The notes beneath the pieces are model-generated. The model saw only the letters and a list, made by a program, of their open reading frames with translations, was not told the origin of the DNA and ran no database searches. Shown one piece after another: positions 15,431 through 60,038 of a stretch of DNA of 64,000 bases. Both the position numbers and the translations under genes were made by a program. Origin of the DNA: an uncultured Eubacteriales bacterium (lineage in GTDB: Bacteria; Bacillota; Clostridia; Lachnospirales; JAISER01); the NCBI GenBank assembly GCA_964500895.1, contig CAZCQP010000002.1:1812-65811 (forward strand), given 5' to 3'. The stretch's first letter is position 1. Each line of letters opens with the position of its first letter.

Positions 15431-18400
15431 GGAATCATCGCCCTTCCCTTGCGAGGGACGACTGTTGCCCCGGTTCTTATGTGTCCGCTCCTGTAATATT
15501 TCAATCCACGTCCCCTTGCGGGGGACGACTTTCATTTTAACTCTAATTGATTTATGTTTAAAATTTCAATCCACGTCCCCTTGCGGGGGACGACGGGTTT
15601 TTTGCAAGACAATAAAGTCAAATTGATTATTTAAATCCACGTCCCCTTGCGGGGGACGACGGTACACCTCTTTTCATAAATTTTAAATTCGTAAATTTAA
15701 ATCCACGTCCCCTTGCGGGGGACGACGGCCCCAATTTTATCCGCTGGCATATCCTTTGTTTATTTCAATCCACGTCCCCTTGCGGGGGACGACCCGTGCG
15801 GCTTCCCGTTCATCGTCCGTTTGAGCTTATTTCAATCCACGTCCCCTTGCGGGGGACGACCCCTCGTAGTCCTTGTTGATGACAAAGTCCTGTCCATTTC
15901 AATCCACGTCCCCTTGCGGGGGACGACTTGGTGGCATCAATACCATCACGCACAACAGCGGAATTTCAATCCACGTCCCCTTGCGGGGGACGACCACCCA
16001 CACCGTTGCCCTGGTTTTGCTTGGCTTGCAATTTCAATCCACGTCCCCTTGCGGGGGACGACAACATTTCTTCCATTGTTAGACCGGGAAAACATTATTT
16101 CAATCCACGTCCCCTTGCGGGGGACGACCCATTACGGAGGTACAGCTTTTTGATACAAATAACATTTCAATCCACGTCCCCTTGCGGGGGACGACATGCC
16201 CGTTGACCTGGCCCCGCCGAGGGCAGGGAGTATTTCAATCCACGTCCCCTTGCGGGGGACGACGCAATAAGTCCAAGCAATTGCGCAATGGGTGGAAATT
16301 TCAATCCACGTCCCCTTGCGGGGGACGACATGGCTGTTTTTAACTATTCCAATGATTTTTGCATTTCAATCCACGTCCCCTTGCGGGGGACGACTGGATG
16401 TAATTAACGCTAATGCCAGGTGGGACAGCATTTCAATCCACGTCCCCTTGCGGGGGACGACACTGGGCGCGGACGGCTGGGTGGGGGACTTTTATAATTT
16501 CAATCCACGTCCCCTTGCGGGGGACGACCCAAACAGGCAAGGAAATAACCATAGGCGCAAAGGATTTCAATCCACGTCCCCTTGCGGGGGACGACGGGTG
16601 CGCCCGGCGCAACTAAAATCCACCTATCCCCATTTCAATCCACGTCCCCTTGCGGGGGACGACGTCCTCACTCTTCCACTTTCTGATGCGACTTTCGGAT
16701 TTCAATCCACGTCCCCTTGCGGGGGACGACCCGAGTGTACCAGACCGTCGCCGATGAGGATGATTGATTTCAATCCACGTCCCCTTGCGGGGGACGACTG
16801 TCCTGGAGTTACTGATATCGGCATATCTAGCACATTTCAATCCACGTCCCCTTGCGGGGGACGACAATGTAACCTCTTGCGCTCTTGTACAAATTTTGGT
16901 TATTTCAATCCACGTCCCCTTGCGGGGGACGACATCTTATCCTGCGCTTTGAGCCGTCCTTCAAAAAATTTCAATCCACGTCCCCTTGCGGGGGACGACT
17001 TTTGTTTTGTTGCTACGCTGAACTCGTTCTTCTATTTCAATCCACGTCCCCTTGCGGGGGACGACAGTTTCTATTGGTGATGTATACTACAACCAATCTA
17101 TTTCAATCCACGTCCCCTTGCGGGGGACGACGTCCTCACTCTTCCACTTTCTGATGCGACTTTCGGATTTCAATCCACGTCCCCTTGCGGGGGACGACTA
17201 TGGGGCCTGTCCAATCAGCTGGGGTTTAACGATATTTCAATCCACGTCCCCTTGCGGGGGACGACGACGATGGATGATGACCGTTTGGAACTACTGAAAC
17301 ATTTCAATCCACGTCCCCTTGCGGGGGACGACGGGTCGGATTATACGCTACCGAATGTATTAAACATTTCAATCCACGTCCCCTTGCGGGGGACGACACA
17401 ATAAAATACATACCCTTCCCCTTTGGGCGAATTTCAATCCACGTCCCCTTGCGGGGGACGACGATACGGCGGCCATACAGATGTTCTTTACACGTATATT
17501 TCAATCCACGTCCCCTTGCGGGGGACGACTATTCGTCTGGAGCAAATTCTTCCTGGTCGATATTAATTTCAATCCACGTCCCCTTGCGGGGGACGACCAA
17601 GCAGGGGGATAGCAATAGATACTAAGCTCTTTATTTCAATCCACGTCCCCTTGCGGGGGACGACTGTTCTGTTTATTAATACTCCGTAATTTCAACAATT
17701 TCAATCCACGTCCCCTTGCGGGGGACGACCATTTCAAAAGGGTAAGCTAATGGAGGCGATATTCTATTTCAATCCACGTCCCCTTGCGGGGGACGACACT
17801 ATGCTATCTAAGTATAATCAAAAAAAAACAAGATTTCAATCCACGTCCCCTTGCGGGGGACGACTCTTCGCTCATGTCATTTGATATAAATATTTTTATT
17901 TCAATCCTCGTCCCCTTGCGGGGGACGACTGACGATGCTGCCGTTATACCGGGCGTTATGCTATTTCAATCCACGTCCCCTTGCGGGGGACGACGACCAC
18001 TTCATCTTGTGGCATGACCTTGAGGCCATTTCAATCCACGTCCCCTTGCGGGGGACGACATTAGACGGGCAATGGAGGTACAATCGCCTAGTCAATTTCA
18101 ATCCACGTCCCCTTGCGGGGGACGACCCGGATGGACTTGCTACCGGTTGAGGTCAAAGAATTTCAATCCACGTCCCCTTGCGGGGGACGACGGTAAATCA
18201 TAATGGTCTTCGTCATCTATAATAATTTCAATCCACGTCCCCTTGCGGGGGACGACATTCCTGTGGCAAACTCACTTAACGTCTCAACAGATATTTCAAT
18301 CCACGTCCCCTTGCGGGGGACGACATAAGCTCTACAGCATGGCTAAGTACGCCATCAGCAATTTCAATCCACGTCCCCTTGCGGGGGACGACTTAATGAC

Positions 18401-21400
18401 CAAGGTATCCCTAGGTTAATTGACCTATTTCAATCCACGTCCCCTTGCGGGGGACGACAACGTTTAAGCACTGCATTTCCAAATATAATCCCATTTCAAT
18501 CCACGTCCCCTTGCGGGGGACGACTGTAGGATGGGCTGCGTTTTTAAGCGAAATCAAGATTTCAATCCACGTCCCCTTGCGGGGGACGACTTCAATTTGT
18601 TTTGTTCGGACAATTTGTCAACAGATTTCAATCCACGTCCCCTTGCGGGGGACGACTTTATTCGGGGTATTAAACAAATCAAGCTCATTAGCATTTCAAT
18701 CCACGTCCCCTTGCGGGGGACGACAATGCCATAGCCTTTAATATCGGCCATGGCATTTTATTTCAATCCACGTCCCCTTGCGGGGGACGACGTTTGGGGA
18801 TGCGGTTAAGGGCTTGCATTTGTACGATTTCAATCCACGTCCCCTTGCGGGGGACGACGCCTGATTACATGAAAACGCAGGAGCGACTGAATATTTCAAT
18901 CCACGTCCCCTTGCGGGGGACGACTGAACCGTGGCCAGTACGACAATACCGACCAATATATTTCAATCCACGTCCCCTTGCGGGGGACGACAAATATCGG
19001 CCGAACTGGCGTAAGCAGTTATAATATTTCAATCCACGTCCCCTTGCGGGGGACGACATCGTGCCCCCGAAGCCGGTGCCCAGGTAATTAAAAATTTCAA
19101 TCCACGTCCCCTTGCGGGGGACGACCACTTGCAACCCATGACTGCCAAGCAAAAGCCGGAGATTTCAATCCACGTCCCCTTGCGGGGGACGACTGGCTGT
19201 AACATTGGCATCATTGATGACCCCATTAAATTTCAATCCACGTCCCCTTGCGGGGGACGACACCACTCATAAGCCAATTCAAAAATGCAAGTTGCTATTT
19301 CAATCCACGTCCCCTTGCGGGGGACGACAGTTGCTGGACGAATGATTGATATAATTTCAGATATTTCAATCCACGTCCCCTTGCGGGGGACGACAGTTTG
19401 CGCCGACAATCGTAATATGACCGCCGGGATTTCAATCCACGTCCCCTTGCGGGGGACGACGAAACCGACACCGTATTAACGGCAACCTACGAAAACATTT
19501 CAATCCACGTCCCCTTGCGGGGGACGACACCAGTACAGATTGCCTATGTATCTTGCAGATGGATTTCAATCCACGTCCCCTTGCGGGGGACGACGATAGC
19601 ATAACACAGGTTGACGTTCGCCGAGTAAAATTTCAATCCACGTCCCCTTGCGGGGGACGACCTCTGCCATTTCTCATGTATGGCGTCGCCTTCTGCATTT
19701 CAATCCACGTCCCCTTGCGGGGGACGACCCAATCTGGGCTTTTACGTCAACTTGCCTTTCTTATTTCAATCCACGTCCCCTTGCGGGGGACGACAACGAG
19801 GATAGGCTACATAACAAACACAAACGAGCATTTCAATCCACGTCCCCTTGCGGGGGACGACTGGGTTTAAAATCCTCTCAAGCAAGTTTTTGTTTGATTT
19901 CAATCCACGTCCCCTTGCGGGGGACGACTAACATCGAGATGGCATTAGCAAAAGGTGACAAGATTTCAATCCACGTCCCCTTGCGGGGGACGACCTTTTG
20001 TTCAAAGTAACAACTTTTTGTTTACAAGATTTCAATCCACGTCCCCTTGCGGGGGACGACCTCATTGCTGCTTGTCAACGCAGGGTTGTTAACTATTTCA
20101 ATCCACGTCCCCTTGCGGGGGACGACAGCTTACATAGTAGCGCCTATCACCGGAGAAACTATTATTTCAATCCACGTCCCCTTGCGGGGGACGACGAAAG
20201 CAACCCAAAAGCGCCGGTTACTGTATTCAAATTTCAATCCACGTCCCCTTGCGGGGGACGACCTTGCGCTATTTTGTAATTTAAGCGCTGACTGTTCGAT
20301 TTCAATCCACGTCCCCTTGCGGGGGACGACTGCTTAGTTCGTAGCAATCTTCTCCCAAATCGCTATTTCAATCCACGTCCCCTTGCGGGGGACGACTGGA
20401 GGCGCTTAGCGATAAATATGCCGCACTGCAAATTTCAATCCACGTCCCCTTGCGGGGGACGACAATTCTGGCGCTATCAATGCATTGAACTTTAACGATA
20501 TTTCAATCCACGTCCCCTTGCGGGGGACGACGCCAGCAAGTCGACTACAATATCACGGAACACCTCTAGTCGATTTCAATCCACGTCCCCTTGCGGGGGA
20601 CGACACATAAATACGCTGGGGCTTACCTCCTACATCTGGATTTCAATCCACGTCCCCTTGCGGGGGACGACGACGAAGAACCTCGTCAACCAGCATAGCC
20701 TCTTTATTTCAATCCACGTCCCCTTGCGGGGGACGACAATTACCTGTCCTGCTTATTGTTGGATTTTGAGAATATTTCAATCCACGTCCCCTTGCGGGGG
20801 ACGACTCCACGCCTTTTGCCTGACCGTTTGCTCCATTGATTTCAATCCACGTCCCCTTGCGGGGGACGACCCCTTCATCCCTATAAATGTGCTCATCAAA
20901 AATTATTTCAATCCACGTCCCCTTGCGGGGGACGACAAGGCTTTTATGTTTTACATTCCATTCCCGTCAAATTTCAATCCACGTCCCCTTGCGGGGGACG
21001 ACGTAGTTTTGCCGGTGTTAAAAATTCGATTGGTGCAATTTCAATCCACGTCCCCTTGCGGGGGACGACAAGCCTGTCAAATCTGTGGGGGCGTTTTTCA
21101 AGGTATTTCAATCCACGTCCCCTTGCGGGGGACGACAATGTCGATGTCAAACAAGGCTTTAGTGGTCATGATTTCAATCCACGTCCCCTTGCGGGGGACG
21201 ACAGTATTCTTCGCTTGCTGTTGGCAGGCCCTTAACAATTTCAATCCACGTCCCCTTGCGGGGGACGACACGGTTTTAAATTTATCAAGCGTATCCCTCA
21301 ACAATTTCAATCCACGTCCCCTTGCGGGGGACGACATCTATGGATACACCATCAGATAGTATGGTTTTGCATTTCAATCCACGTCCCCTTGCGGGGGACG

Positions 21401-24400
21401 ACGGGTAGGCGCTGGTGCAGAGACGCTTCCTGGCGATATTTCAATCCACGTCCCCTTGCGGGGGACGACCAGACAAGTCATATTGCAGCAATGACTTTGG
21501 GTTATTTCAATCCACGTCCCCTTGCGGGGGACGACCGCCCCGCCATAAGGTAGGGGCTATAATTATATACCATTTCAATCCACGTCCCCTTGCGGGGGAC
21601 GACGGCCATCTTCCAGCAAGTGCGTTAGCCACGGGATGATTTCAATCCACGTCCCCTTGCGGGGGACGACCCAACTGGGTTAACGAGTGTGTCTTTATCT
21701 ATGTTATTTCAATCCACGTCCCCTTGCGGGGGACGACCTTTTAAGTCCTTAGTTATGTGCAACCCTGTTTATTTCAATCCACGTCCCCTTGCGGGGGACG
21801 ACATAAGTCTAACTTTGTTCTCGTGGTTTCTATCAAGATTTCAATCCACGTCCCCTTGCGGGGGACGACCATAACCTCCATAACCCAAATGCAAGAGCGA
21901 GAGCAATTTCAATCCACGTCCCCTTGCGGGGGACGACGCTTGCGCTTCGTTATTTGCGCGTTCTACAGCTTATTTCAATCCACGTCCCCTTGCGGGGGAC
22001 GACTCTGGTTAACATGCGTATCGCTCCTTGTTAGTTTTATTTCAATCCACGTCCCCTTGCGGGGGACGACGCGGATTATTTTGTCGGGGTTATTTATCAT
22101 TAACATTTCAATCCACGTCCCCTTGCGGGGGACGACAATGCCGACTGTAACGGCAGTTACAATATTATTAATTTCAATCCACGTCCCCTTGCGGGGGACG
22201 ACATGGCTTTACATTTAAGCAAAAAGCACGACATAAATTTCAATCCACGTCCCCTTGCGGGGGACGACAAGGTGCGTCCGTTCCGTCCTCATCTATATCC
22301 CAGCATTTCAATCCACGTCCCCTTGCGGGGGACGACTAGCCACCAAAAGATTGTGTTGCTTTTTGAGATAAATTTCAATCCACGTCCCCTTGCGGGGGAC
22401 GACATTTTACCCCTTTCGGCTGTGCAGCCCTTATAAATTTCAATCCACGTCCCCTTGCGGGGGACGACTTGATACTGGTTGCCTTTAATAGCCGTTATTT
22501 TGTATTTCAATCCACGTCCCCTTGCGGGGGACGACTTAGGCTAATGGATGTAATGGGTAAGGGTTGTAATATTTCAATCCACGTCCCCTTGCGGGGGACG
22601 ACTTAGGCGGCAAGACGTTTTTTGAAAAGGCAGTAGAAATTTCAATCCACGTCCCCTTGCGGGGGACGACCTCAACGCTGTTATTACTGTCATGCGTCAA
22701 AACATTTCAATCCACGTCCCCTTGCGGGGGACGACTATTTTGTCGATTATGTTTGGAACTTTATTTCCATTTCAATCCACGTCCCCTTGCGGGGGACGAC
22801 TTTAACTTCAAAGTTTCATAGTTGTCGAGTATTACATTTCAATCCACGTCCCCTTGCGGGGGACGACGTCGCTATCGCAACCCATCCTGCTTGCGCAAGT
22901 GTATTTCAATCCACGTCCCCTTGCGGGGGACGACTCTTTTATCTGGTCCCTTAAGGCTTGTTGCTCATCAATTTCAATCCACGTCCCCTTGCGGGGGACG
23001 ACGTTGGCTTGCTTATGTAATTGTGTCAAACAACAAAGATTTCAATCCACGTCCCCTTGCGGGGGACGACCAAAAACAAAAAACCAGGTTTCAGTTATCC
23101 TCTATTTCAATCCACGTCCCCTTGCGGGGGACGACCCACCACTACTGTCCAATCTTCCTGGATGAGCAATTTCAATCCACGTCCCCTTGCGGGGGACGAC
23201 TCAAGTAGATACCACAAGGATTTTTAGCCAGTATATTTCAATCCACGTCCCCTTGCGGGGGACGACTGGCAGTGAGAGGCGGGGAAATTTCGGTTTGCGA
23301 TATTTCAATCCACGTCCCCTTGCGGGGGACGACTACAACAGGCTTAAATCACTTATGCTGCATGCCAATTTCAATCCACGTCCCCTTGCGGGGGACGACT
23401 AAGGCGCATGAGGCCAACAGAGCAGCCAGAAAATTTCAATCCACGTCCCCTTGCGGGGGACGACTGCAGTAGGATTTAAGCTGGGCTTCAAGGTCTTTGA
23501 TTTCAATCCACGTCCCCTTGCGGGGGACGACGGGTAAGGGTAAGGGTTGTAATGGGGGAGGGAGGATTTCAATCCACGTCCCCTTGCGGGGGACGACGCC
23601 TTGCCGCCAAAGATAACCCATTGCTGTTTAAATTTCAATCCACGTCCCCTTGCGGGGGACGACCCATGTGCCTATTGTTAACCGTGGCAATAGCTTTTAT
23701 TTCAATCCACGTCCCCTTGCGGGGGACGACTAAAGCGTTGCCAATTTCAACCTGTATTTCTTCTATTTCAATCCACGTCCCCTTGCGGGGGACGACTTAA
23801 CTAAAAATTTAAACAGGTGGTGCATTTAATATTTCAATCCACGTCCCCTTGCGGGGGACGACCACACAAGTAACACGCAAGTAACACGCTTAGTAGAATT
23901 TCAATCCACGTCCCCTTGCGGGGGACGACAGCGATTGCTGACATAAGACAATACTTTTCATCAATTTCAATCCACGTCCCCTTGCGGGGGACGACAGCAG
24001 CACTCGTATAATAAACTCCAGCGTACTGGATTTCAATCCACGTCCCCTTGCGGGGGACGACATGTTTTCTTGCGAAATAACGTCCTGTGCTGTTTTATTT
24101 CAATCCACGTCCCCTTGCGGGGGACGACTAAGTCTGGATAAAGAAATTATAAAAACCGGATTTATTTCAATCCACGTCCCCTTGCGGGGGACGACCATCA
24201 AGTCTGGTGTATCAATCTTAAGATTTTTTATTTCAATCCACGTCCCCTTGCGGGGGACGACTCACTGTCGGCCGCATACCCGTTTATGGACGATATTTCA
24301 ATCCACGTCCCCTTGCGGGGGACGACCCCTGCCCCTGAAATTTTTTCTGCTATTGCCATCGATTTCAATCCACGTCCCCTTGCGGGGGACGACGAAATTA

Positions 24401-27400
24401 AGCCTAACGAAGACCGTGAGCTTGGAATTTCAATCCACGTCCCCTTGCGGGGGACGACATTTTTTACCGGCATTGCCGGGGATTACCAAAGCAATTTCAA
24501 TCCACGTCCCCTTGCGGGGGACGACTAAGGCTTTTATGTTTTACATTCCATTCCCGTCAAATTTCAATCCACGTCCCCTTGCGGGGGACGACGGTGTCCG
24601 TGAGCAACATAAAAGCCGCCCTGCATATAATTTCAATCCACGTCCCCTTGCGGGGGACGACTGAAATTAAGCCTAACGAAGACCGTGAGCTTGGAATTTC
24701 AATCCACGTCCCCTTGCGGGGGACGACTCCGCTCGTTGTTTTGTCGTTACTAATTTTTATCATTTCAATCCACGTCCCCTTGCGGGGGACGACATCCATA
24801 GATACTCCAATGCAAGCCTCAATAAATATTTCAATCCACGTCCCCTTGCGGGGGACGACCCAAAGTCCGCCCCGTCTGGCACTACATCTGCTGGATTTCA
24901 ATCCACGTCCCCTTGCGGGGGACGACGCCCTTGAATATTATTCTACTTCCGTTCGGGAACTTATTTCAATCCACGTCCCCTTGCGGGGGACGACCAGAGC
25001 AATACAATACGCTCTTAGGGCTTCCTGCTATTTCAATCCACGTCCCCTTGCGGGGGACGACTCGGAACGAAGCTTATCGATATGCCGTACTGGTTATTTC
25101 AATCCACGTCCCCTTGCGGGGGACGACCGATGCTCTCAAGCGATTCATTCACTGCTTCTTCATTTCAATCCACGTCCCCTTGCGGGGGACGACATAAACG
25201 AGTTCGGGTTTCCTGTTATTAGCAAAGAATTTCAATCCACGTCCCCTTGCGGGGGACGACTGATTCAGAGGCAAGCAATCCTAATTTGCTAACGATTTCA
25301 ATCCACGTCCCCTTGCGGGGGACGACAAAGCTTAACGAAACTACAGTGACGGCCGCACAAATGATTTCAATCCACGTCCCCTTGCGGGGGACGACCGCAG
25401 AACAGTATTGGTCGTGGATTTGTTGATTTTATTTCAATCCACGTCCCCTTGCGGGGGACGACTGATATAATTGCTCGCTACCTCTTAATGCGTTATTATT
25501 TCAATCCACGTCCCCTTGCGGGGGACGACTGACGAAAACAACAACATTAAAGCAGGGTTTAAAATTTCAATCCACGTCCCCTTGCGGGGGACGACAAATT
25601 CTACAACCGCAACGATTGACCGCAGAATCAATTTCAATCCACGTCCCCTTGCGGGGGACGACGGGCGCAACCAAGGGCGAGCTAAAAGCGAATTACAAAT
25701 TTCAATCCACGTCCCCTTGCGGGGGACGACTTCTGCCGCACCTTTTTTGCCAAGCGCTTCACGGAAATTTCAATCCACGTCCCCTTGCGGGGGACGACCC
25801 TTTCCATAACGATAATCGGCCTAGCGCATCCGTATTTCAATCCACGTCCCCTTGCGGGGGACGACGATGACACCGGGCAAGGGTAATTTCTTCCGTATTT
25901 CAATCCACGTCCCCTTGCGGGGGACGACCACAGCAGATAGCGCAGAGCCACGTACAATTAATATTTCAATCCACGTCCCCTTGCGGGGGACGACGTTTGA
26001 CGAGTGTATGAGGGTTTTGAAACCCAATGATTTCAATCCACGTCCCCTTGCGGGGGACGACGTAAAGGGCAATAATAGCCAAACATTTGCCATAACGATT
26101 TCAATCCACGTCCCCTTGCGGGGGACGACTTGTCACAGCTTGACATTGCAAAGATTGAGCTTGACATTTCAATCCACGTCCCCTTGCGGGGGACGACGAC
26201 GCAAGTTGATGTTGATACCGATATTTTAAACATTTCAATCCACGTCCCCTTGCGGGGGACGACATTGGGACACAGCTTCAAAACTGCTGCTGCGGCATTA
26301 TTTCAATCCACGTCCCCTTGCGGGGGACGACGTGTTGCGTTCGCTCAAAACGTTCCAAACTTAACGGATTTCAATCCACGTCCCCTTGCGGGGGACGACC
26401 ACAAGGCGTTTACAATTCAGCAACGCCTATAGAGAATTTCAATCCACGTCCCCTTGCGGGGGACGACAAGCCAAGCAGCCACTTTAGCCGCCGAATATAG
26501 AAATTTCAATCCACGTCCCCTTGCGGGGGACGACATTTGATTCCGCTGATGATGCTATGGCCGAAACTATTTCAATCCACGTCCCCTTGCGGGGGACGAC
26601 ATGGTTACACGCAGTACGCATAAGGAGGCAGGGATATTTCAATCCACGTCCCCTTGCGGGGGACGACAAATGCGTTTGATTTGCCGCCAGATTATTTTCA
26701 ATTTCAATCCACGTCCCCTTGCGGGGGACGACATAAATGGCTGAAACTCACTGGAAAAAACTTAATTTCAATCCACGTCCCCTTGCGGGGGACGACTTGG
26801 TCATGGAGCTGTTAACCTTCCGCCCGCTAGTTTCTGTATCTACGTCGCCTTGTGGGGGTCTAGTATGTTTATTGGGTTTGGAGTACAAAAAAATTTCAAT
26901 TTCAATCCACGTCCCCTTGCGGGGGACGACGCTTCGTCAATTTCGGCTTGTAGTTGTTCGGTTTATTTCAATCCACGTCCCCTTGCGGGGGACGACACTA
27001 GCAGCCGGTGGAATTATTTTATAAGCGAAAAATTTCAATCCACGTCCCCTTGCGGGGGACGACGTGTCATAATCGGCATATTTAGCTTGTTCTTGTTATT
27101 TCAATCCACGTCCCCTTGCGGGGGACGACTAATTGCGTTTGCTGTGATGGCCGCATCATCTGTAGATTTCAATCCACGTCCCCTTGCGGGGGACGACGCC
27201 ACTTGTCAATCTCTGCTTGTGCGTCATCAACATTTCAATCCACGTCCCCTTGCGGGGGACGACCCCCGTCAATTTTTGCTGATCCGGCAACATACGTATT
27301 TCAATCCACGTCCCCTTGCGGGGGACGACCATTGACCAACCGTTCTGACCGAGATTATATTGTATTTCAATCCACGTCCCCTTGCGGGGGACGACCCATA

Positions 27401-28463
27401 TGGCAAATAATTATAGAGGTGATTACATGATATTTCAATCCACGTCCCCTTGCGGGGGACGACAATGTAACTTGGCTAAAGCCACGAATGCGGTTTGATA
27501 TTTCAATCCACGTCCCCTTGCGGGGGACGACAATAAATCACATCCAATTGTTTGTTTCTATTGTGCATTTCAATCCACGTCCCCTTGCGGGGGACGACGG
27601 CGTTATATTGTGCGGTGCTTGTAGTAAAAAACATTTCAATCCACGTCCCCTTGCGGGGGACGACGTTCAATGTAAATCATTAGCAAGTCATCAGACAAAA
27701 TTTCAATCCACGTCCCCTTGCGGGGGACGACTTCGCCCATCGAGCAAGGTCTTTTGTTATTTGCATTTCAATCCACGTCCCCTTGCGGGGGACGACGGGT
27801 GGAGCCAGTGGGAGAGTTTTAACACAATCGGATTTCAATCCACGTCCCCTTGCGGGGGACGACTTTCCTGTAATTTTTTCAAGCTCTGCGGAAAGTTTTA
27901 TTTCAATCCACGTCCCCTTGCGGGGGACGACGGCACGATTATCACCAACCCTTCACATTTACAAAATTTCAATCCACGTCCCCTTGCGGGGGACGACCCT
28001 CATGGGCTGCCGATGCCTGGGCCTGGGGAAAAATTTCAATCCACGTCCCCTTGCGGGGGACGACAATCGAAAAAGGCCCAAGCTACTGCTATTTCGGCGA
28101 TTTCAATCCACGTCCCCTTGCGGGGGACGACATTGCAATGTCACGGAGTTGCCCGAAACAGCAATATTTCAATCCACGTCCCCTTGCGGGGGACGACTTG
28201 TGACGCCACTTTTAGCCTAAACAACAGCATTATTTCAATCCACGTCCCCTTGCGGGGGACGACGACATGATTGGAGACACCAATGATTTGCTTGGTGGTA
28301 TTTCAATCCACGTCCCCTTGCGGGGGACGACTAATTGTCAATAGGTAAATTTGATTATTTATATGATTTCAATCCACGTCCCCTTGCGGGGGACGACTGA
28401 GGCAAGGGACGAATTGCAAGCATTGAAACAGATTTCAATCCACGTCCCCTTGCGGGGGACGAC
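15431..28463 (-). CRISPR. Type I-C-like CRISPR array, 196 repeats (32 bp) and 195 spacers
   Basis: Plus-strand repeat is ATTTCAATCCACGTCCCCTTGCGGGGGACGAC; the minus strand reads GTCGTCCCCCGCAAGGGGACGTGGATTGAAAT. I listed every repeat start by hand, from 15431 to 28432, with spacing of 63-73 bp. Spacers are mostly 33-36 nt. The degenerate terminal repeat at 15431-15462 and the AT-rich leader next to cas2 set the polarity. Confidence 0.97.
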
Positions 28464-28632
28464 AGCAAAAATGCATACATTTAACTATCATTCAAGCAAA
28501 TAAACATACAACAATTACAAAAAACACCTATGACCAAGACAAAACGCCAATTTCCAAGCATGGCAATACCCCAAAACACCTTAATTTCCAGTGCGAAAGA
28601 TGCCCCAAAACCATGTACGCTTAAGGTTCGCA
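28464..28632 (-). promoter_or_regulatory. CRISPR leader
   Basis: 169-bp AT-rich, non-coding segment between the cas2 stop codon and the first (newest) repeat. Contains an internal 35-bp imperfect tandem duplication. Confidence 0.7.
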
Positions 28633-28931: not shown

Positions 28932-29963
28932 CTACTTCCACAAAAATGGTGGATACGCCTCTAAGTCGCCCCGCAAATGCCGGGCCAGCAGCATGGCTTG
29001 CACGTGAGGCACTAATCCCCACTGTATTTTTTCTTCCAAAAACGGATGGGTAATGGTTTCCTGTTTGCGGGCTTGCCACGCACTTAGAAATGCTTTGCGT
29101 GCGGCATCATCCATAATGACGGCGCCATTTTCCTTTACGGTGAACCCTTTGGCATGAACTTCCCGCTTGTTAATGAGGGAAAGCACAAATCGGTCGGCCA
29201 GGATAGGGCGCATTTCTTCCATTAAATCCAGCGCAAGAGAGATGCGCCCGGGGCGGTCTCGGTGCAAAAAGCCCACGTAGGGGTCTAGCCCAACCCCTTC
29301 TAGCGCCGATGCTACATCGTTTGCCAGCATGGTGTACGCAAAGGAAAGCAGCGCATTCACTTTATCCAAAGGCGGTCTTCGGCTGCGGGTGTGAAATTGA
29401 AAGTCCTCTTTTTGCTGCAAAATCAACTGGTCTATGACACCAAAATACCGAGTGGCACTTTCGCCTTCCAGGCCACGCAATTGCTCAAGGTTTTCACAGT
29501 CTTTGATGGCATCTGTAGATTTTTTAATGAGTGCAGAAGCCTTTTTTAATTGCTCAACGTCAACCCGGGCGGCGTGGTCCCGGGTGGCCCGCTCTATGAC
29601 CCAGCGTGCATTATACAGCTTGCCGATAATCATGTTTTGTGCAATGAACAGGGACTGCTGCTCGTCATCTGAAACCCTGTACTGCTTTTTGCGCAGCAAC
29701 ACATTGCCATGCACTTCCCCCACAATGCGTGCCTGAAACCGGCCGCTGGGGCTTAAAAAGCAAAGGGCAATATTTTTTGCGGCACAGGCCCGCATGAGCG
29801 CTGGGCTTGCGCCTGTGTAGCCAAAAGTTACAATGCTTTCAACATTATGTAAAGGCAAACGGATGACTTCCTGCTCCTCTTTTCGCACGACGATGTTTTC
29901 CCCGTCTAAAGAAAGATAGTGTTCAGGGGTTGTGATATACAACGTGTTCAGCAATTTTCTCAT
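28932..29963 (-). CDS. cas1: CRISPR-associated endonuclease Cas1 (I-C type)
   Basis: 343 aa. N-terminus MRKLLNTLYITTPEHYLSLDGENIVV and conserved C-terminal region (FGYTGASP, LDLMEEMRP). Overlaps cas4 by 4 nt. Confidence 0.92.
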   Translation of the reverse strand: MRKLLNTLYITTPEHYLSLDGENIVVRKEEQEVIRLPLHNVESIVTFGYTGASPALMRACAAKNIALCFLSPSGRFQARIVGEVHGNVLLRKKQYRVSDDEQQSLFIAQNMIIGKLYNARWVIERATRDHAARVDVEQLKKASALIKKSTDAIKDCENLEQLRGLEGESATRYFGVIDQLILQQKEDFQFHTRSRRPPLDKVNALLSFAYTMLANDVASALEGVGLDPYVGFLHRDRPGRISLALDLMEEMRPILADRFVLSLINKREVHAKGFTVKENGAVIMDDAARKAFLSAWQARKQETITHPFLEEKIQWGLVPHVQAMLLARHLRGDLEAYPPFLWK

Positions 29964-30625
29964 GCGTCTGCCTCCCCAATTCTTGTTTGAATATAGTGGG
30001 CCACGGATGCCTTTTTCAGCATTTTAGGAAGGCAAAAGTCCGCCAACGAGCAGGACTTACAGGCTTTGTTAGGCTTACACTTGGGTGTGTGCCCCCGTTG
30101 GTAATGCTGGTGCATTTCTTTCAGCATGTCCTTAGCGGTTTGGCGTAGGGTTTGGGTGAAGGCGACTGGCAGCCTGCGCCTTGTTTCGCCGTAAAACAAA
30201 TAGCCTTCCTGAATATCACAGACAAACATTTCCTCTAAACATAATGCTTGTGCGCACAATTGCAGTTCGTCTGCGTCATTTTGCTTTGGTGCGCCTCGCT
30301 TATACTCCACCGGCACCACACGGTATGTACCATCCCGGCCATGAATGGTGATGCCACTTGCATCTTTCCAAAGCTCCACCACATCGCAGACACCGGATAT
30401 GCCCAGATCCCGGGACATCACCGGCATACTGCGGGTGATCAGCACATCGCCCCGCTTTTCCACAGAAGCTTCATGGGCTTTTTCGTGCAGAAATCTGCCT
30501 TCAAGGGTGAGCACATTTTCCTTCCATGCCTGTTCAACGTGAATCAGCCCCCACTGGCGGCGGCAAAAGGCAAAATGTTGTATGCCCGATAACGGGAGAA
30601 AGTCTTCTTCGTTAAACATCATCAA
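29960..30625 (-). CDS. cas4: CRISPR-associated exonuclease Cas4
   Basis: 221 aa. RecB-like motif (VPVEYKRG), N-terminal Cys (HFAFCRRQW) and C-terminal Cys cluster CKPNKACKSCSLADFC. Confidence 0.9.
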   Translation of the reverse strand: MMMFNEEDFLPLSGIQHFAFCRRQWGLIHVEQAWKENVLTLEGRFLHEKAHEASVEKRGDVLITRSMPVMSRDLGISGVCDVVELWKDASGITIHGRDGTYRVVPVEYKRGAPKQNDADELQLCAQALCLEEMFVCDIQEGYLFYGETRRRLPVAFTQTLRQTAKDMLKEMHQHYQRGHTPKCKPNKACKSCSLADFCLPKMLKKASVAHYIQTRIGEADA

Positions 30626-44075: not shown

Positions 44076-44175
44076 AAAACCTCGCTTTCACATAAATGCA
44101 TTATAAATAATAGCTATACAACAAATATTTATGCATTTAGTTTATACACGAAGCGTTGTCAAAACATCTGCATAC

Positions 44176-44199
44176 AAAAAACCGCCTTAAAAAAGGCGG
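44176..44199 (-). terminator. Rho-independent terminator after argH
   Basis: Minus strand reads ccgcc-ttttttaa-ggcgg followed by tttttt. Confidence 0.6.
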
Positions 44200-44224
44200 A
44201 TTAAGTCGTACACTTTTGTTTTTA

Positions 44225-45610: not shown

Positions 45611-46833
45611 TAGTGTCCTGCTTTCTGATCCAGCATTGCTTTCACTTTGATAGGAAGTCCCAGCAAATTGATGAATCCTTTAGAATCATTTTGGTCGTAA
45701 GCGTTGTTGTCGTCGCCAAAGGAGGCAATGGCTTCATTGTATAAAGAGTAGGGGGAGGTAACACCGGCATTAATGATGTTGCCCTTGTACAGCTTCAGCT
45801 TAACCTCGCCGGTAACCGTTTGCTGTGTTTGCTGAACAAACGCCCACAGCGCCTCCCGCAGGGGGGTGTACCACTGGCCGTTGTATACCAGCTCTGCAAA
45901 TTTGTGGCCAATGCCTTGCTTGTAGTGCATGGTCTGTTTGTCTAGGCAAATGCTTTCCAGTACGTGGTGGGCGTGGTATAAAATGGTGCCCCCTGGTGTT
46001 TCATAAACCCCCCGGGACTTCATGCCCACCAGCCGGTTTTCCACAATGTCTATGATGCCAATGCCGTTTTCTGCACCCAGTTGGTTCAGCAAGGTTACAA
46101 TCTCTGAACCTTTCAATGTTTTGCCATCCACAGCCACAGGTGCGCCATTTTCAAAGGTGATGCTCACATAGGTGGGAACGTCTGGGGCTTGTTCTGGGGT
46201 TTTGCACACACACAACATTTTGTCATACAGGGGTTCGTTGCCGGGGTCTTCCAGTTCCAGCCCTTCGTGGGAAAGATGCCACAAGTTTTTGTCCCGGGAA
46301 TAGTTGGTTTCTTTTGTGAAAGTTAAAGGCACGTTGTGTTTGGCGGCATATTCCATTTCGTCCTCTCTGGACTTAAGCTCCCAAACCCGCCAAGGGGCAA
46401 TCACTTCCATGTGGGGCGCAAATGCCTTAATGGAAAGCTCAAACCGCACTTGGTCGTTGCCTTTGCCTGTGCAACCGTGGGCAATGGCGTCTGCCCCTTC
46501 TTTCATGGCAATGTCCACCAAATACTTGGCAATGACCGGCCGTGCAAAGGACGTGCCCAGCAGGTATGTATCCTCATAGACAGCACCTGCCATCAAGGTT
46601 GGGAAAATGTATTCATCCACGAATTCATCAATCATGTCCACAATATATAGCTTGGATGCACCAGTTTTCAGGGCCTTTTCCTCAAGGCCTTCAAATTCTT
46701 CGTCTCCCTGGCCCACGTTACCGGCCACTGCAATCACTTCACAGCCATCATAGTTTTCCTTCAGCCATGGAATGATGACCGATGTATCCAAACCACCTGA
46801 GTATGCCAATACAATCTTGTTAATCTTTTTCAT
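45610..46833 (-). CDS. argG: Argininosuccinate synthase
   Basis: Starts [18 protein letters not shown] (ATP-PPase motif) behind RBS aaaaggag. The track ORF carries a 23-codon upstream extension that I reject. Confidence 0.93.
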
Positions 46834-46866
46834 AATAACCGCTCCTTTTATTATATAATTTTTTAT

Positions 46867-46921
46867 AAAAAAAACAAACAAAACAAAAAGCGACCTCAGC
46901 ACAAAATGGCTTCAGTCGCTT
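46867..46921 (-). terminator. Intrinsic terminator located between the arg promoter/leader ORF and argG (candidate attenuator)
   Basis: Minus strand reads aagcgactgaagc-cattttgt-gctgaggtcgctt followed by tttgttttgtttgtttttttt. It sits about 35 nt upstream of the argG RBS. Confidence 0.6.
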
Positions 46922-46954
46922 GTGTTTTGTTTGTTGGTTGGGAGGATGTTCCGC

Positions 46955-47056
46955 TTACTCTCCTTCGCTAAACACACAAGAAACTAAAGCCTGCATACGG
47001 CGGCGCAGACCTAATACGTTTACTTGTGAAGTTACAGCAACATTAAGATTCAGCAT
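46955..47056 (-). CDS. Candidate 33-aa leader peptide with three consecutive Arg codons
   Basis: RBS taaggag, 7 nt, then ATG. Peptide is MLNLNVAVTSQVNVLGLRRRMQALVSCVFSEGE, with CGC CGC CGT at 46997-47005. Same frame as the C-terminal part of the 60-aa track ORF. Confidence 0.35.
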   Translation of the reverse strand: MLNLNVAVTSQVNVLGLRRRMQALVSCVFSEGE

Positions 47057-47076
47057 GTTCAAACTCCTTAAACAGC

Positions 47077-47137
47077 ATTGCAATATAAATGCATATACTT
47101 TGCTGTTTACTATACTGTTGTTTTTTAAAAATGTCAA
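47077..47137 (-). promoter_or_regulatory. argGH promoter with an ARG-box-like palindrome
   Basis: Minus strand reads TTGACA (47132-47137), a 17-nt spacer, then TATAGT (47109-47114). Just downstream is TATGCATTTATATTGCAAT (47077-95), a TGCA-N7-TGCA AT-rich palindrome resembling ArgR/AhrC operators. Confidence 0.5.
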
Positions 47138-47426
47138 TAGTTTTTTGCAATGCTCATGTTCGTTTCATAAACAAGCCAAAACATTTAGAAGTAACGAATC
47201 ATCCAGAAGCGTAGCCAACACGTTACCATCTATTGCTATAATTTCGCCTAAATCGCCAGCATTTTCACGCATAATATCAGCCATTGCGGACCCGTCGGCA
47301 TCTCTGTTAACCATATTCAATATGCGGCTTAGCGTTGGTTTGGACGAAATGCTTTTTATGTGGTAATGTTTGCTGTAAAAAGCTATCTTTTACTGCATCA
47401 ATTTTCGTGCATCTTATCCCAATGAA

Positions 47427-47912
47427 TTATTTAACTAAAAATAGTTGGATGTATCTATCTTTTATATTTTGGGGATTGACCAAGACTTTAACAATAAAAT
47501 TTTCAGGGTTAGCGCTAATATTGTAATAAAGCAATTTGCTTTCATCAATAAGTACATTGCCAATTTCATTTTCGTAACGTACTGTAACTGTAAATGGGTG
47601 TGACTTTTTTTTTGAGAATCCGCCATACCCTATATATGTTCCATGAAAAGATATATCGTTGTTGTATTTAACCCCTATAACCTGGGCCTCGTAACTAATT
47701 CCTTTTTTCTGCAATCGCATTTTACGCTTGGCCTTAAAATAAAAATAAAGATAGCAAAGAAAGAGCCTGGCCAGTGGTAATAATATTTCTGTTATCACCG
47801 CTTGTTTCATTAAAACAGTAACTACCACCCATAATAAGTCTATGAGCATCACAAGTGTAAGCACAGTAACAACAAAATAAAACCCTCTATAACCGTATCT
47901 CAATTCTTTCAT
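47427..47912 (-). CDS. Hypothetical membrane protein (two N-terminal TM helices plus a beta-rich C-domain)
   Basis: 161 aa ORF in a locally AT-rich segment. Resembles DUF3592-type architecture, but this is not verified. Confidence 0.45.
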   Translation of the reverse strand: MKELRYGYRGFYFVVTVLTLVMLIDLLWVVVTVLMKQAVITEILLPLARLFLCYLYFYFKAKRKMRLQKKGISYEAQVIGVKYNNDISFHGTYIGYGGFSKKKSHPFTVTVRYENEIGNVLIDESKLLYYNISANPENFIVKVLVNPQNIKDRYIQLFLVK

Positions 47913-47965
47913 ATCTTTGCCTTTCGGTTAGTTTGCAAAGTTAACATATTGCCCTAATATTACAA

Positions 47966-48139
47966 TTTAGAACCTGTATTCAATAATGGGTTGCCCGCAT
48001 TTGAAATGGCGATTTTTCGCCATTCGAGGCGCAGCGATGCAGGCATAATAAAACAAATTATGGCAAGCCGCTGCAACAAAGAAGGGCGGGATAATTGCTT
48101 TCAAAGGCAGATGACAGCTTATTGCATACAGGTTCTTAG
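47966..48139. repeat. ~174-bp AT-rich element bounded by 19-nt imperfect inverted repeats (MITE-like or structured RNA)
   Basis: tttagaacctgtattcaat (47966-47984) against attgcatacaggttcttag (48121-48139), with 16 of 19 positions complementary. Contains an internal hairpin aatggcga-tttt-tcgccatt. Confidence 0.45.
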
Positions 48140-57526: not shown

Positions 57527-57730
57527 ATGAACATGAAAAAAACAAAACAAAGCATGGTGCGTGTTAAGCGGTATGTGCAGGTGTTAACCCCTCAGGGGGA
57601 TGTGACCCGAACCATAGACTTGCAATCGGTTTCTAAAGAGGAAGAAGACAGGTGGCTGGCGTGCGTTTTTCAACAGGCAATGGAGCGGCTGGGGTATGCG
57701 CCTGTTGAAAGAGATGGGAAGGTTTTATAA
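57527..57730 (+). CDS. Hypothetical 67-aa protein immediately upstream of the recombinase
   Basis: ORF with RBS ggaagggg. Its end lies 13 nt before the recombinase start codon. Confidence 0.4.
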   Translation: MNMKKTKQSMVRVKRYVQVLTPQGDVTRTIDLQSVSKEEEDRWLACVFQQAMERLGYAPVERDGKVL

Positions 57731-57743
57731 GGAGGTTGCGCCC

Positions 57744-59216
57744 ATGGCCATTGCGGCGGTGTATATAAGGGTTTCCACCGAAGACCAAACCGAATTTTCC
57801 CCAGAAGCCCAGTTAAGGGCCATAGGGCAATATGCGGAAAAAAACGGATACACCATAGAGGAAGATTTTATTTTTAGAGACGAAGGCATTTCCGGCAGGC
57901 GTGCAGACAAACGCCCGGCCTTTCAAAAAATGGTGGCCATGGCTAAAAGGAAGCCAGCGCCTTTTCGGGTAATATTGGTGCATAAATTTGACCGTTTTGC
58001 TCGATCACGGGAAGACAGCATTGTGTATAAGTCTTTGTTGAAACGGGAGTGTAACATTAAAGTGGTGAGCATTACGGAACAGCTTGAAGACGACAAGTTT
58101 TCGGTCATCTTAGAAGCCATGTTGGAAGCCATGGCGGAATATTACAGCCTGAACTTGTCCGAGGAAGTGAAAAAAGGGATGACGGAAAAAGCACGGCGGG
58201 GAGAATTACAAACCCCGGCCCCTTTTGGCTATCGCATGGTGAACGGACTACTCACCCCCCAACCGGAAGAAGCAGAAATGGTGCGTGAAATTTTTAGGCT
58301 TTATGTGAACGAACGCTTGAACTTGCGGTCCATTGCCAAGCACATGAACGGGCAGGGCTGTAAAACGAAACAAGGGAACAGCTTTGACACCCGAAGCATC
58401 ACCTACATTTTGTGTAACCCCACATATACAGGCAAAATGCGCTGGACTCCCACCGGCCCGGCAGCCAGCAGGTTTCATTTTGATAACCCGGACACTTGGG
58501 TGCTGGAGGGCAAACATCCAGCCATTGTAGGGGAACAAATGTGGCAGGAGGCCAACCGGCGCATCCGAGCAGACAAAAAGCAGAAAATTCCCTTGTATAC
58601 ACGGGATGGCAACGTGCAGACCCACTGGCTGCGGGGGGTGTTGCGCTGTGGCCATTGCGGAACCACCCTGTCTTACGGGAAAGGAGCTGAAGGCAAGCAA
58701 GGGGCTTACCGATGCAGCAAATATTTAACCGGGGGGTGCCCACAACCCCAGCGCATCACCGTGGGCAAAGCGGAACAAGCGGTACTGGATGTTTTACAAA
58801 AAGATGGTGCAGCGGTGCCTCCCATAGTTTTCCAAAAAAACAATACCCATTTACAGGAACAACAAGACACATGGATGCGCTGTAAAAAAATGATCACCAA
58901 GCTGCAAGACCGGCTGGAAAAAGCACGGGAACTGGTGCTGGCGGGAATAGATACAACAGAAGAATATAGGCAAAACAAACTAAAGATAGAGCAGCAAATG
59001 AAGGAAACCATAGAAAAAATGCAGACCATAGAACAGCAGCAAAAGATGCAGCAGGAAGAAAGGGAAGAAAAAAGGGTTGGTTCGGTGGCAGATATTCTGT
59101 TATCCCAAGCCAGCTTGACAGAAAAAAACAATGCCATCCGGCAATTGGTAAGTCAAATGGTTTATGATAAACAAAATGAAACGTTAGATATTTATTATTA
59201 TGCAGTAGAAACATAA
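57744..59216 (+). mobile_element. Large serine recombinase (resolvase N-domain + recombinase domain + zinc ribbon + coiled coil)
   Basis: N-terminus MAIAAVYIRVSTEDQ carries the catalytic Ser motif. Also has FDRFARS, a recombinase domain, a Cys-rich ribbon (CGHCGTTLSYG...YRCSKYLTGGC) and a Q/E-rich coiled coil. Start chosen behind RBS aaggagg. Confidence 0.88.
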
Positions 59217-59220
59217 ACCT

Positions 59221-59236
59221 TGGCATGAAATATGCA
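59221..59236 (+). promoter_or_regulatory. Candidate sigma-54 (-24/-12) promoter
   Basis: TGGCAT-gaaat-ATGCA against consensus TGGCAC-N5-TTGCW, with correct GG-N10-GC spacing. Lies 41 nt upstream of the next start codon. Confidence 0.5.
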
Positions 59237-59276
59237 TGTATAAACCAGCAGAGAAAAATTAGAAGGAGAGATACAA

Positions 59277-60038
59277 ATGAATCATATCATTGAAAGATTA
59301 AAAACATTACAGGGGCACACAGGATTTTATTATAAAAATATGGTTACGGGGGAAACATTGGCCTATCAGGAAAACGACACCTTTACCCCGGCCAGCATCA
59401 TTAAGCTGCCCATGCTTATGCAAATTTTTCGCATGGCGGCCAAAGGGGAAGCGGATTTAACTGAACGCATTAAAATCCGGCATGAAGACAAGGTGCCTAG
59501 TTGCGGGGCGCTTAACAGATTTACCGATGAGCCGGTGGTGGATATACGCACCTTATGCAACCTGATGACAATCATTAGCGACAACACCGCCACCAACGTG
59601 CTCATTTCCCATTACGGTACAGAGCGGCTGAATAAAGGCTTTGAGGAAATGGGCCTTGAAAAAACCAGAGTGAACCGGCGGTTATTTGATATGGAATCTG
59701 CCAGAAAAGGCATTTCAAACTATATAACGCCAAAAGAAATCGGTCAGCTATTGGAACAACTTTACAACCGTACTTTTGTGAATGAGGCCGTTTCACAAGA
59801 TATATTAAACATTTTACTGGAACAGCAGTTTGACCATAAAATTCCCGGCATGTTACCTCCCGGCACAAAGGTGGCCCACAAAACAGGGGAAGATGATGAC
59901 ATTTCCAACGATGTGGGCATTGTATACGCCAAAGCACCATTTGTGGTTTGCTTTGTGTCCAATAAAACCATCAACCATCCGTTTAATATGTTCATTCGGG
60001 AAACAACCTTAGAACTGTTTAACCAGTGCAATCAATGA
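59277..60038 (+). CDS. Class A beta-lactamase-related serine hydrolase
   Basis: 253 aa with SxxK (ASIIKLP), SDN (ISDNTATN) and KTG (HKTGED) motifs. No obvious signal peptide. Confidence 0.7.
   Translation: MNHIIERLKTLQGHTGFYYKNMVTGETLAYQENDTFTPASIIKLPMLMQIFRMAAKGEADLTERIKIRHEDKVPSCGALNRFTDEPVVDIRTLCNLMTIISDNTATNVLISHYGTERLNKGFEEMGLEKTRVNRRLFDMESARKGISNYITPKEIGQLLEQLYNRTFVNEAVSQDILNILLEQQFDHKIPGMLPPGTKVAHKTGEDDDISNDVGIVYAKAPFVVCFVSNKTINHPFNMFIRETTLELFNQCNQ

Follow-up and report, generated by a model that had tools for sequence, protein, structure and literature searches.

How is the argG-argH (argGH) operon of an uncultured Eubacteriales bacterium switched on, when an intrinsic terminator stands between its genes and the only promoter that could serve them? 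The operon lies in a 64-kb stretch of contig CAZCQP010000002.1 (the window, to which all coordinates refer) and is preceded by a leader that carries, besides the terminator, a short open reading frame (ORF) with three consecutive arginine codons. Arginine biosynthesis is the textbook case of repressor control (by ArgR/AhrC). An earlier note on this DNA, written from its letters by a model, had tentatively proposed that a ribosome translating the short ORF regulates the operon by attenuation. Our analysis points in the same direction: the leader is probably a ribosome-mediated leader-peptide transcription attenuator that senses Arg-tRNA and gates a single promoter into argG-argH. Attenuation by a ribosome reading Arg codons is the best-supported explanation of the evidence intrinsic to the locus, which is stronger than the note had recognised, although three details of the original proposal had to be corrected. 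We set out below the position of the terminator, the competing RNA helices, the statistics of the ORF and the geometry of a waiting ribosome, and weigh the alternatives along the way.

The only promoter lies upstream of the terminator

The leader and the operon are read on the minus strand, and their elements follow one another in this order:

47137-47132 and 47114-47109, minus strand: sigma-70-type promoter, TTGACA and TATAGT with a 17-nt spacer, 11 of 12 consensus positions
47069-47064, minus strand: leader Shine-Dalgarno (SD) sequence AAGGAG, 7 nt ahead of the ATG
47056-46955, minus strand: leader ORF, with ATG at 47056-47054, 33 codons (MLNLNVAVTSQVNVLGLRRRMQALVSCVFSEGE) and stop codon TAA at 46957-46955
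47005-46997, minus strand: Arg codons CGC CGC CGU (R18-R20) inside the leader ORF
46921-46867, minus strand: intrinsic terminator, with core stem 46921-46914/46895-46888, an inner stem and a U-rich tract at 46889-46867
46848-44225, minus strand: the regulated genes argG-argH, with the argG SD GGAG at 46845-46842
46833 (ATG) to 45610, minus strand: argG, 407 amino acids (aa)
45610-44225, minus strand: argH, joined to argG by an ATGA overlap and followed by its own terminator at about 44200-44175

The promoter, an ARG-box-like site discussed further below, the SD, the 33-codon ORF, the run CGC CGC CGT, the terminator and the argG ribosome-binding site (RBS) were all found where they had first been placed. 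The earlier description of the promoter as near-consensus holds as well: with its 11/12 match, TTGACA-17-TATAGT (47137-47109) is the top-scoring promoter-like site in the 2 kb that we scanned (46000-48000). From its spacing, we infer that the leader transcript starts at about 47104-47101.

No promoter-like site in the interval between the terminator and argG passes the same scan. The sole -10-like hexamer in this interval, TATAAT at 46855-46850, has a poor -35, and a separate argG promoter built on it (TTGTTT-16-TATAAT) does not pass the scan; its transcripts would begin within the argG SD. Because there is no usable promoter between the terminator and argG, expression of argGH needs read-through, and with a strong terminator between the sole promoter and the genes a conditional terminator is the natural reading.

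The stretch from promoter to terminator could also be an independent gene for a small protein or small RNA (sRNA), with argG transcribed separately. It has the form of such a unit, with its own promoter, RBS, ORF and terminator, and both attenuator-derived sRNAs and dual-function RNAs exist (PMC7968998, PMC12612679). We nevertheless consider this quite improbable: argG would be left without a promoter, since its sole -10-like hexamer would begin the transcript within the argG SD, the peptide has neither a homologue nor a family, and the antiterminator described in the next section would go unexplained.

Three mutually exclusive helices in the leader RNA

The minimum-free-energy fold of the leader and the folds of all its co-transcriptional prefixes consist of one long imperfect hairpin around the leader ORF, followed by the terminator. 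The 276-nt leader folds more stably than its dinucleotide shuffles (z = -4.9). The elements that compete with each other are:

47041-46962, minus strand: anti-antiterminator hairpin, -27.9 kcal/mol, with outer closing pairs out to 47067-46941
46991-46974, minus strand: segment 2, the 5' strand of the antiterminator (GGCUUUAGUUUCUUGUGU), codons 22-28 of the leader ORF
46925-46908, minus strand: segment 3, the 3' strand of the antiterminator (ACACAAGCGACUGAAGCC), identical in sequence to the terminator 5' arm

Within the anti-antiterminator hairpin, segment 1 (CACAAGUAAAC, 47028-47018) pairs with GUUUCUUGUG (46984-46975), and an apical hairpin is formed by 47012-47004 with 46995-46987, the Arg codons R18-R20 providing the last two bases of the apical 5' arm and most of the loop. 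The closing pairs join the leader SD GGAG (47067-47064) to CUCC (46944-46941), a pairing that becomes possible after the whole leader has been transcribed, and UGCU of the start region to AGCG directly 3' of the leader stop codon. The SD and the boundaries of the leader ORF coincide with the base and the span of this long hairpin.

Segments 2 and 3 can form an antiterminator of 17 bp with one U-C mismatch (-26.0 kcal/mol). The alternative pairing described earlier, of cttgtgtgttt (46980-46970) with aaaacacaag (46928-46919), does exist, but is merely part of this 17-bp helix; its overlap with the terminator arm, which had been put at ~3 nt, in fact extends to the entire terminator 5' arm. The energy of the antiterminator is exceptional, both against 2000 dinucleotide shuffles of the upstream 116 nt (mean -14.9, standard deviation 2.6, p = 0.0015) and against 2000 random 116-nt genomic segments (p = 0.001); a test on a shortened strand (46932-46913) had given p = 0.088 and was superseded once the strand through AAGCC was included. 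Because segment 3 is the complete terminator 5' arm, the antiterminator and the terminator fully exclude one another. The core stem of the terminator, in which segment 3 pairs with segment 4, has an energy of -16.4 kcal/mol, and an extended stem between its A-tract and U-tract, reaching out to 46935-46873, has -31 kcal/mol.

Before segment 4 is transcribed, the hairpin state has a calculated energy of -54.2 kcal/mol and the antiterminator state one of -47.6 kcal/mol; by this estimate, a gap of 6.6 kcal/mol, the two states are near enough in energy to switch. Without a ribosome, all co-transcriptional prefixes retain the hairpin and then form the terminator, which makes termination the default. 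Folding of the region gives three mutually exclusive helices, with p of about 0.001 for the antiterminator. These helices, with their energies and statistics, are established here, as are the sequence elements and their geometry.

An RNA of this kind in front of arginine genes calls to mind a T-box or another riboswitch that binds tRNA-Arg, with the CGC/CGU codons shown in the apical loop. Arg T-boxes do control arginine genes in some Firmicutes (PMC1262725), and the Arg codons are exposed in a hairpin loop here. The possibility is effectively refuted, however, by the absence of a covariance-model match, of the bulge and of Stem I: Rfam gave no T-box match at E-values up to 10 in 46500-47500 or at the gathering score in the whole window, no UGGN bulge occurs in the antiterminator region (46991-46908), and there is no Stem I architecture. 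The same two scans revealed no other riboswitch. Matches to the A/U-rich terminator (mir-268 and similar) in these scans were due to chance, and the gathering-score scan of the window found one tRNA-Trp.

The leader ORF and its arginine codons

Counting both strands, the window contains 20 short ORFs of 10-60 codons that have an SD and an ATG, and just one of these, the argGH leader, has a run of at least three Arg codons. Dinucleotide shuffling of the 271-nt 5' untranslated region (UTR), repeated 20000 times, produced a short ORF with an SD and an ATG in 5.9% of cases, and one of the same type with three consecutive Arg codons (RRR) in 0.025% (p = 0.00025). The 24 genes of the window, with 11539 codons, contain no RRR at all; Arg accounts for 4.0% of their codons, and CGC and CGU, with 25% and 13.5% of the Arg codons, respectively, are ordinary and well-used. 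Taken jointly, the elements of the leader are well beyond chance. The leader peptide has no match in Pfam or NCBIfam.

Two SD-related motifs lie close to the leader stop codon on the minus strand. A further SD-like sequence, GAAGGAGAG (46966-46958), is found right before it, and an anti-SD-like CCUCCC (46945-46940) right after it. The CCUCC of the latter pairs with the leader SD in the minimum-free-energy fold and has the argG SD as an alternative possible partner; it might restrict leader translation to one round.

The statistics of the ORF bear on the question of what flips the switch. The leader could be a real three-helix conditional terminator that answers to another sensor, such as an RNA-binding protein, a small ligand or the overall rate of translation, the RRR run being incidental. 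The architecture of the switch is significant by itself and silent on what flips it, the antiterminator is favoured at equilibrium by any ribosome on codons 2-18, and a bound factor could bridge the 6.6 kcal/mol that separates the hairpin state from the antiterminator state. Such a sensor would, however, leave the combination of SD, ATG and RRR unexplained, along with the match of the SD and the ORF boundaries to the base and span of the hairpin. Moreover, the fold is a simple long hairpin, not a multi-helix aptamer, and matches no Rfam family, and we know of no RNA-binding regulator of arg genes. We consider another sensor doubtful. Still more improbable, with very little chance of being correct, is a natural arginine-responsive RNA switch in which arginine acts directly on the long hairpin, or on a factor that binds it, and the ORF has a secondary role: no feature points to it positively, and the SD+ATG+RRR statistics favour the ribosome as the sensor.

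Ribosome position and a model for the switch

If the ribosome is the sensor, its position at the Arg codons should matter for the folding of the RNA ahead of it. We modelled the ribosome with its leading edge set at 16 nt past the first P-site nucleotide, an assumed value with limits of plus or minus 2 nt. On this footprint, a ribosome with R18 in its A site leaves about 46991 as the first free nucleotide, which is the first base of segment 2, and the RNA ahead of it, folded alone, forms the full antiterminator (-27.6 kcal/mol). When all A-site positions were scanned by ensemble folding, pairing of segment 3 with segment 2 had a probability of 0.92 for any codon up to R18, which falls to 0.73 at R19, 0.58 at R20, 0.36 at M21 and 0.15 at codon 23, to reach 0 from codon 24 on. 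The Arg run is thus at the decision boundary, because the antiterminator probability drops once the A site passes R18. The mid-peptide location of the Arg codons, which the earlier note had listed as a caveat, turns out to suit the mechanism, as the codons are in the apical loop, at the last place where a ribosome leaves the antiterminator strand free.

We propose that the switch would operate as follows. By default, with no ribosome on the leader or after its release, the long hairpin would lock segment 2 (46991-46974), segment 3 would pair with segment 4, and the terminator would form and halt transcription ahead of argG. During arginine starvation, a ribosome on the 33-codon ORF would wait with R18 (47005), the first of the three Arg codons, in its A site; the apical hairpin would be melted and segment 1, or part of it, covered, with the leading edge at about 46992. 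Since this is where the leading edge of the R18-stalled ribosome would lie, segment 2 would be exactly free and could pair with segment 3 upon the synthesis of the latter. The resulting 17-bp antiterminator would sequester the terminator 5' arm and RNA polymerase would read through into argGH. When arginine is replete, the ribosome would pass R18-R20, cross codons 22-28, covering segment 2, and halt at the UAA codon (46957) between segments 2 and 3, which it would hold apart to the benefit of the terminator. Following its release at the stop codon, the more stable hairpin could re-form. It had originally been proposed that a ribosome at the stop codon masks the alternative strand; a ribosome there would instead sit between segments 2 and 3, and the masking would take place during codons 22-28. 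What we infer in this model is that the leader ORF is translated and that the switch responds to arginine, together with its kinetics and the footprint limits (plus or minus 2 nt).

Points against the model and the relatives of argG

Several observations weigh against attenuation by a ribosome at the Arg codons. The leader stop codon lies 40 nt past the Arg run and upstream of segment 3. In classical attenuators, the terminating ribosome masks segment 2 directly, which differs from the situation here: because the stop codon precedes segment 3, the replete state depends on steric separation and on the re-forming of the hairpin. Since both the SD and the AUG of the leader are base-paired once the RNA is full-length, translation must begin co-transcriptionally. 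The coupling of transcription and translation is weak in some Firmicutes. Furthermore, since a ribosome anywhere on codons 2-18 favours the antiterminator at equilibrium, specificity for Arg rests on kinetics.

The remaining points on this side come from comparative searches. The best ArgG relatives, from Christensenellaceae-type metagenome-assembled genomes (MAGs), have 77% identity, and a collection of 5.8 billion proteins contains no ArgG between 77% and 100% identity, leaving no close relatives to compare. In the closest relatives (L001-L013), promoters are flanked by 2-4 good ARG boxes, and the UTRs are short in those inspected. Neither a leader nor an attenuator-type terminator, nor any similarity to the argGH leader, was seen upstream of argG in 80 relatives, which are loci found by ArgG in species-representative genome contigs. 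Searches of 83 related loci, of JGI metagenomes and of the 5.8-billion-protein collection likewise turned up no homologue of the leader, either as DNA or as peptide; the peptide was searched as a 60-aa frame in the protein collection, and in the JGI metagenomes together with six peptide patterns. The lack of leader homologues reflects missing close relatives rather than loss of the feature within them, and the leader element appears, from these comparisons, to be lineage-specific and to stand in place of the ARG-box arrays of its relatives.

Some candidates met in these searches were set aside. R-rich ORFs upstream of argG in relatives are GC-rich off-frame or terminator translations, and no ORF with an Arg run recurs consistently. 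An exact 18-mer of segment 3 has 11 matches in metagenomes, all in unrelated coding sequence. The leader occurs just once in the window, which gives no sign of an origin from a repeat or mobile element. Three high-scoring proteins (P0001, P0003 and P0004) are not close ArgG relatives; their scores come from longer or duplicated gene calls, and their genes have upstream ARG boxes and no leader. One related locus (L083, ENA contig k141_10953, 62-1954) has a 630-aa 'ArgG' call, probably a chimera assembled from two strains, in which about 220 argG residues are duplicated internally and which therefore had an inflated bit score when proteins were searched.

Other RNA elements were noticed upstream of argG in the relatives. 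A GC-rich hairpin, AAAAAGAGGCGCAAAAUGCUUGACUUGCGCCUCUU followed by Us, is conserved about 60 nt upstream of argG in L023, L025, L028, L029, L034, L038 and L075, which belong to Gallimonas-like and uncultured Clostridia MAGs. Its loop holds a TTGAC -35-like motif, and the hairpin may serve as a regulatory palindrome or as a terminator that overlaps the argG promoter. In four rumen Clostridiales MAGs (L014, L016, L017 and L018), a UTR of about 90 nt, common to all four, follows a TATAAT box and contains a conserved hairpin built on GCAAAAGCCGCA...UGCGGC, which could be a different RNA element regulating argG.

The ARG-box-like site and repressor control

The transcript start region also contains a candidate operator:

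47093-47080 (feature 47094-47080), minus strand: ARG-box-like site TGCATTTATATTGC, a 12/14 match to the core TGMATWWWWATKCA, at ~+8 to +24 of the transcript

The 14-nt TGMATWWWWATKCA is the core of Firmicute-type ARG boxes, which are usually paired and overlap the promoter. The palindrome that had been noted at the transcription start is present, but at 12/14 it is weak; the window holds 26 core matches against 15 expected. The site contains ATGCATTTAT, which belongs to the 10-mer class ATGCATWWAT; this class occurs three times in the 64 kb, once at the argG start and twice in the hut/FTCD promoter region. The annotated ORFs of the window showed no argR gene.

Control by an ArgR/AhrC-type repressor alone, acting at this start-site operator, would turn the leader and terminator into a device for constant low read-through and the small ORF into a fortuitous one. 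In its favour, the ARG-box-like site overlaps the transcript start, relatives use ARG boxes, and the leader is conserved nowhere in the collections searched. The box is, however, single and weak compared with the 2-4 better ones of the relatives, and a terminator after the sole promoter, an exceptional competing helix and an ORF with RRR would all be coincidences. We judge repressor-only control unlikely. By analogy with the trp operon, dual control by a repressor and by attenuation is plausible, and the ARG-box-like site probably adds a repressor layer to the attenuator, comparable to that of TrpR.

A histidine-utilisation cluster (FTCD_C, FTCD_N, hutH, a transporter and hutU) lies downstream of argH. 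A TTGACA promoter (44161-44156, minus strand) is located between the argH terminator (about 44200-44175) and the start of the FTCD_C/hut operon (44075), and is followed by two or three ARG-box-like sites (within 44076-44224), including ATGCATAAAT (44136-44127) and ATGCATTTAT (44101-44092). This post hoc observation raises the possibility that an operator may be common to the arginine and histidine-utilisation operons.

Neighbouring genes and other features of the window

Two minus-strand ORFs lie upstream of the argG promoter (47165-47912), one of 51 aa with a TTG start (47320-47165) and one of 161 aa (47912-47427) that has hydrophobic stretches and a membrane-spanning appearance; neither matches a family in Pfam or NCBIfam. 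A plus-strand ORF of 148 aa (46920-47366) was judged spurious, as it starts with TTG and lacks both an SD and a family match.

Further away, a CRISPR (clustered regularly interspaced short palindromic repeats) array of about 12 kb occupies about 16230-28465 on the plus strand, with a 32-nt repeat (ATTTCAATCCACGTCCCCTTGCGGGGGACGAC) and a period of about 66, which explains why there are no long ORFs in this region. The array adjoins cas1 (28932-29963) and cas4 (29960-30625). A large serine recombinase with Resolvase, Recombinase and Zn-ribbon domains (57696-59216, plus strand) is followed directly by a gene of the class A-type beta-lactamase family (59277-60038), and this part of the window (57696-60038) may be the edge of a mobile element.

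Comparison with known systems

No arginine leader-peptide attenuator of arg biosynthesis genes is described in the literature that we searched, which left out most subscription-journal papers and thus leaves such an absence unproven. In one account of RNA-level regulation, arginine is listed under T-boxes and not under attenuators (PMC1262725). As proposed here, the argGH leader would resemble Arg T-boxes of Firmicutes in that these, too, act at the RNA level before arginine genes, by antitermination that depends on tRNA-Arg charging, but their specifier-loop and T-box-bulge architecture is absent here and the proposed sensor is the ribosome rather than direct binding of tRNA. With ArgR/AhrC repression, the locus has in common the target genes and one ARG-box-like site at the start of the transcript. 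The difference is that ArgR/AhrC represses at the DNA level in response to free arginine, with 2-4 boxes flanking the promoter and a short UTR in the relatives, whereas here one weak box is combined with a leader of about 270 nt that contains a terminator.

Ribosome pausing at Arg codons is a documented arginine sensor at Salmonella speF, through orf34/speFL (PMC6386406), and at S. aureus rbf, through rbfL (PMC13009471). As proposed for argGH, the leader ORFs of these systems are short and carry Arg codons side by side or close together, and a ribosome that pauses there under arginine limitation remodels the downstream mRNA. Their outputs are different: speF is controlled via mRNA stability, Rho and RBS unfolding and rbf via RBS occlusion, in neither case with an intrinsic terminator, and the genes concerned serve polyamine metabolism or biofilms, not arginine synthesis. 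The fungal arginine attenuator peptide (AAP), encoded by the upstream ORF of arg-2/CPA1, likewise provides arginine-responsive control of an arginine biosynthesis gene from an upstream ORF. It follows the opposite stalling logic, however, in a eukaryotic and translational setting, where free arginine is sensed by the nascent peptide and the ribosome stalls when arginine is high, which blocks scanning.

If the model is correct, the trp/his paradigm would gain a further amino acid and would reach into Clostridia, and the comparison with the Christensenellaceae-like relatives would show how one gene can exchange its sensing system for another, with a terminator read by the ribosome in place of an ARG-box array. 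The significance is limited by the single occurrence in an unsampled lineage and because the mechanism is well understood. At about 230 nt, and with helices that can be assigned clearly, the element is compact and could possibly be reused as an arginine- or tRNA-Arg-responsive part.

Leader-peptide attenuators are known from the same phylum, where T-boxes usually dominate, namely the Leu-rich peptide of S. aureus ilv (PMC5794164) and the His leader of hisS/hisZ in bacilli (PMC2965389). Both are confined to particular lineages and apparently arose independently, as PMC2965389 argues. The argGH leader differs from these in its amino acid, its genes and its lineage, here Clostridia, and shares no sequence similarity with them; the Leu and His attenuators have experimental or comparative support, whereas the argGH leader is known from the sequence of one genome.

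The closest parallels in architecture are the attenuators of E. coli (trpL, hisL, leuL, thrL, pheL and ilvL/ivbL). Arginine is outside their canonical set of amino acids, and there is no sequence homology to the argGH leader. The argGH Arg codons are found in the apical loop between segments 1 and 2 and not within segment 1, the stop codon is placed between segments 2 and 3, where a terminating ribosome would separate the two rather than mask one, and the whole ORF, with its SD and AUG, is enclosed in one hairpin. What argGH and the E. coli leaders share is a short promoter-proximal ORF with a run of codons for the pathway's own amino acid, and helices 1:2, 2:3 and 3:4 that are mutually exclusive, 3:4 being the intrinsic terminator. 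In both, a stalled ribosome covers segment 1 and frees segment 2, as predicted here for argGH, termination is the untranslated default, and a repressor operator may act at the same promoter, as does that of TrpR at trp.

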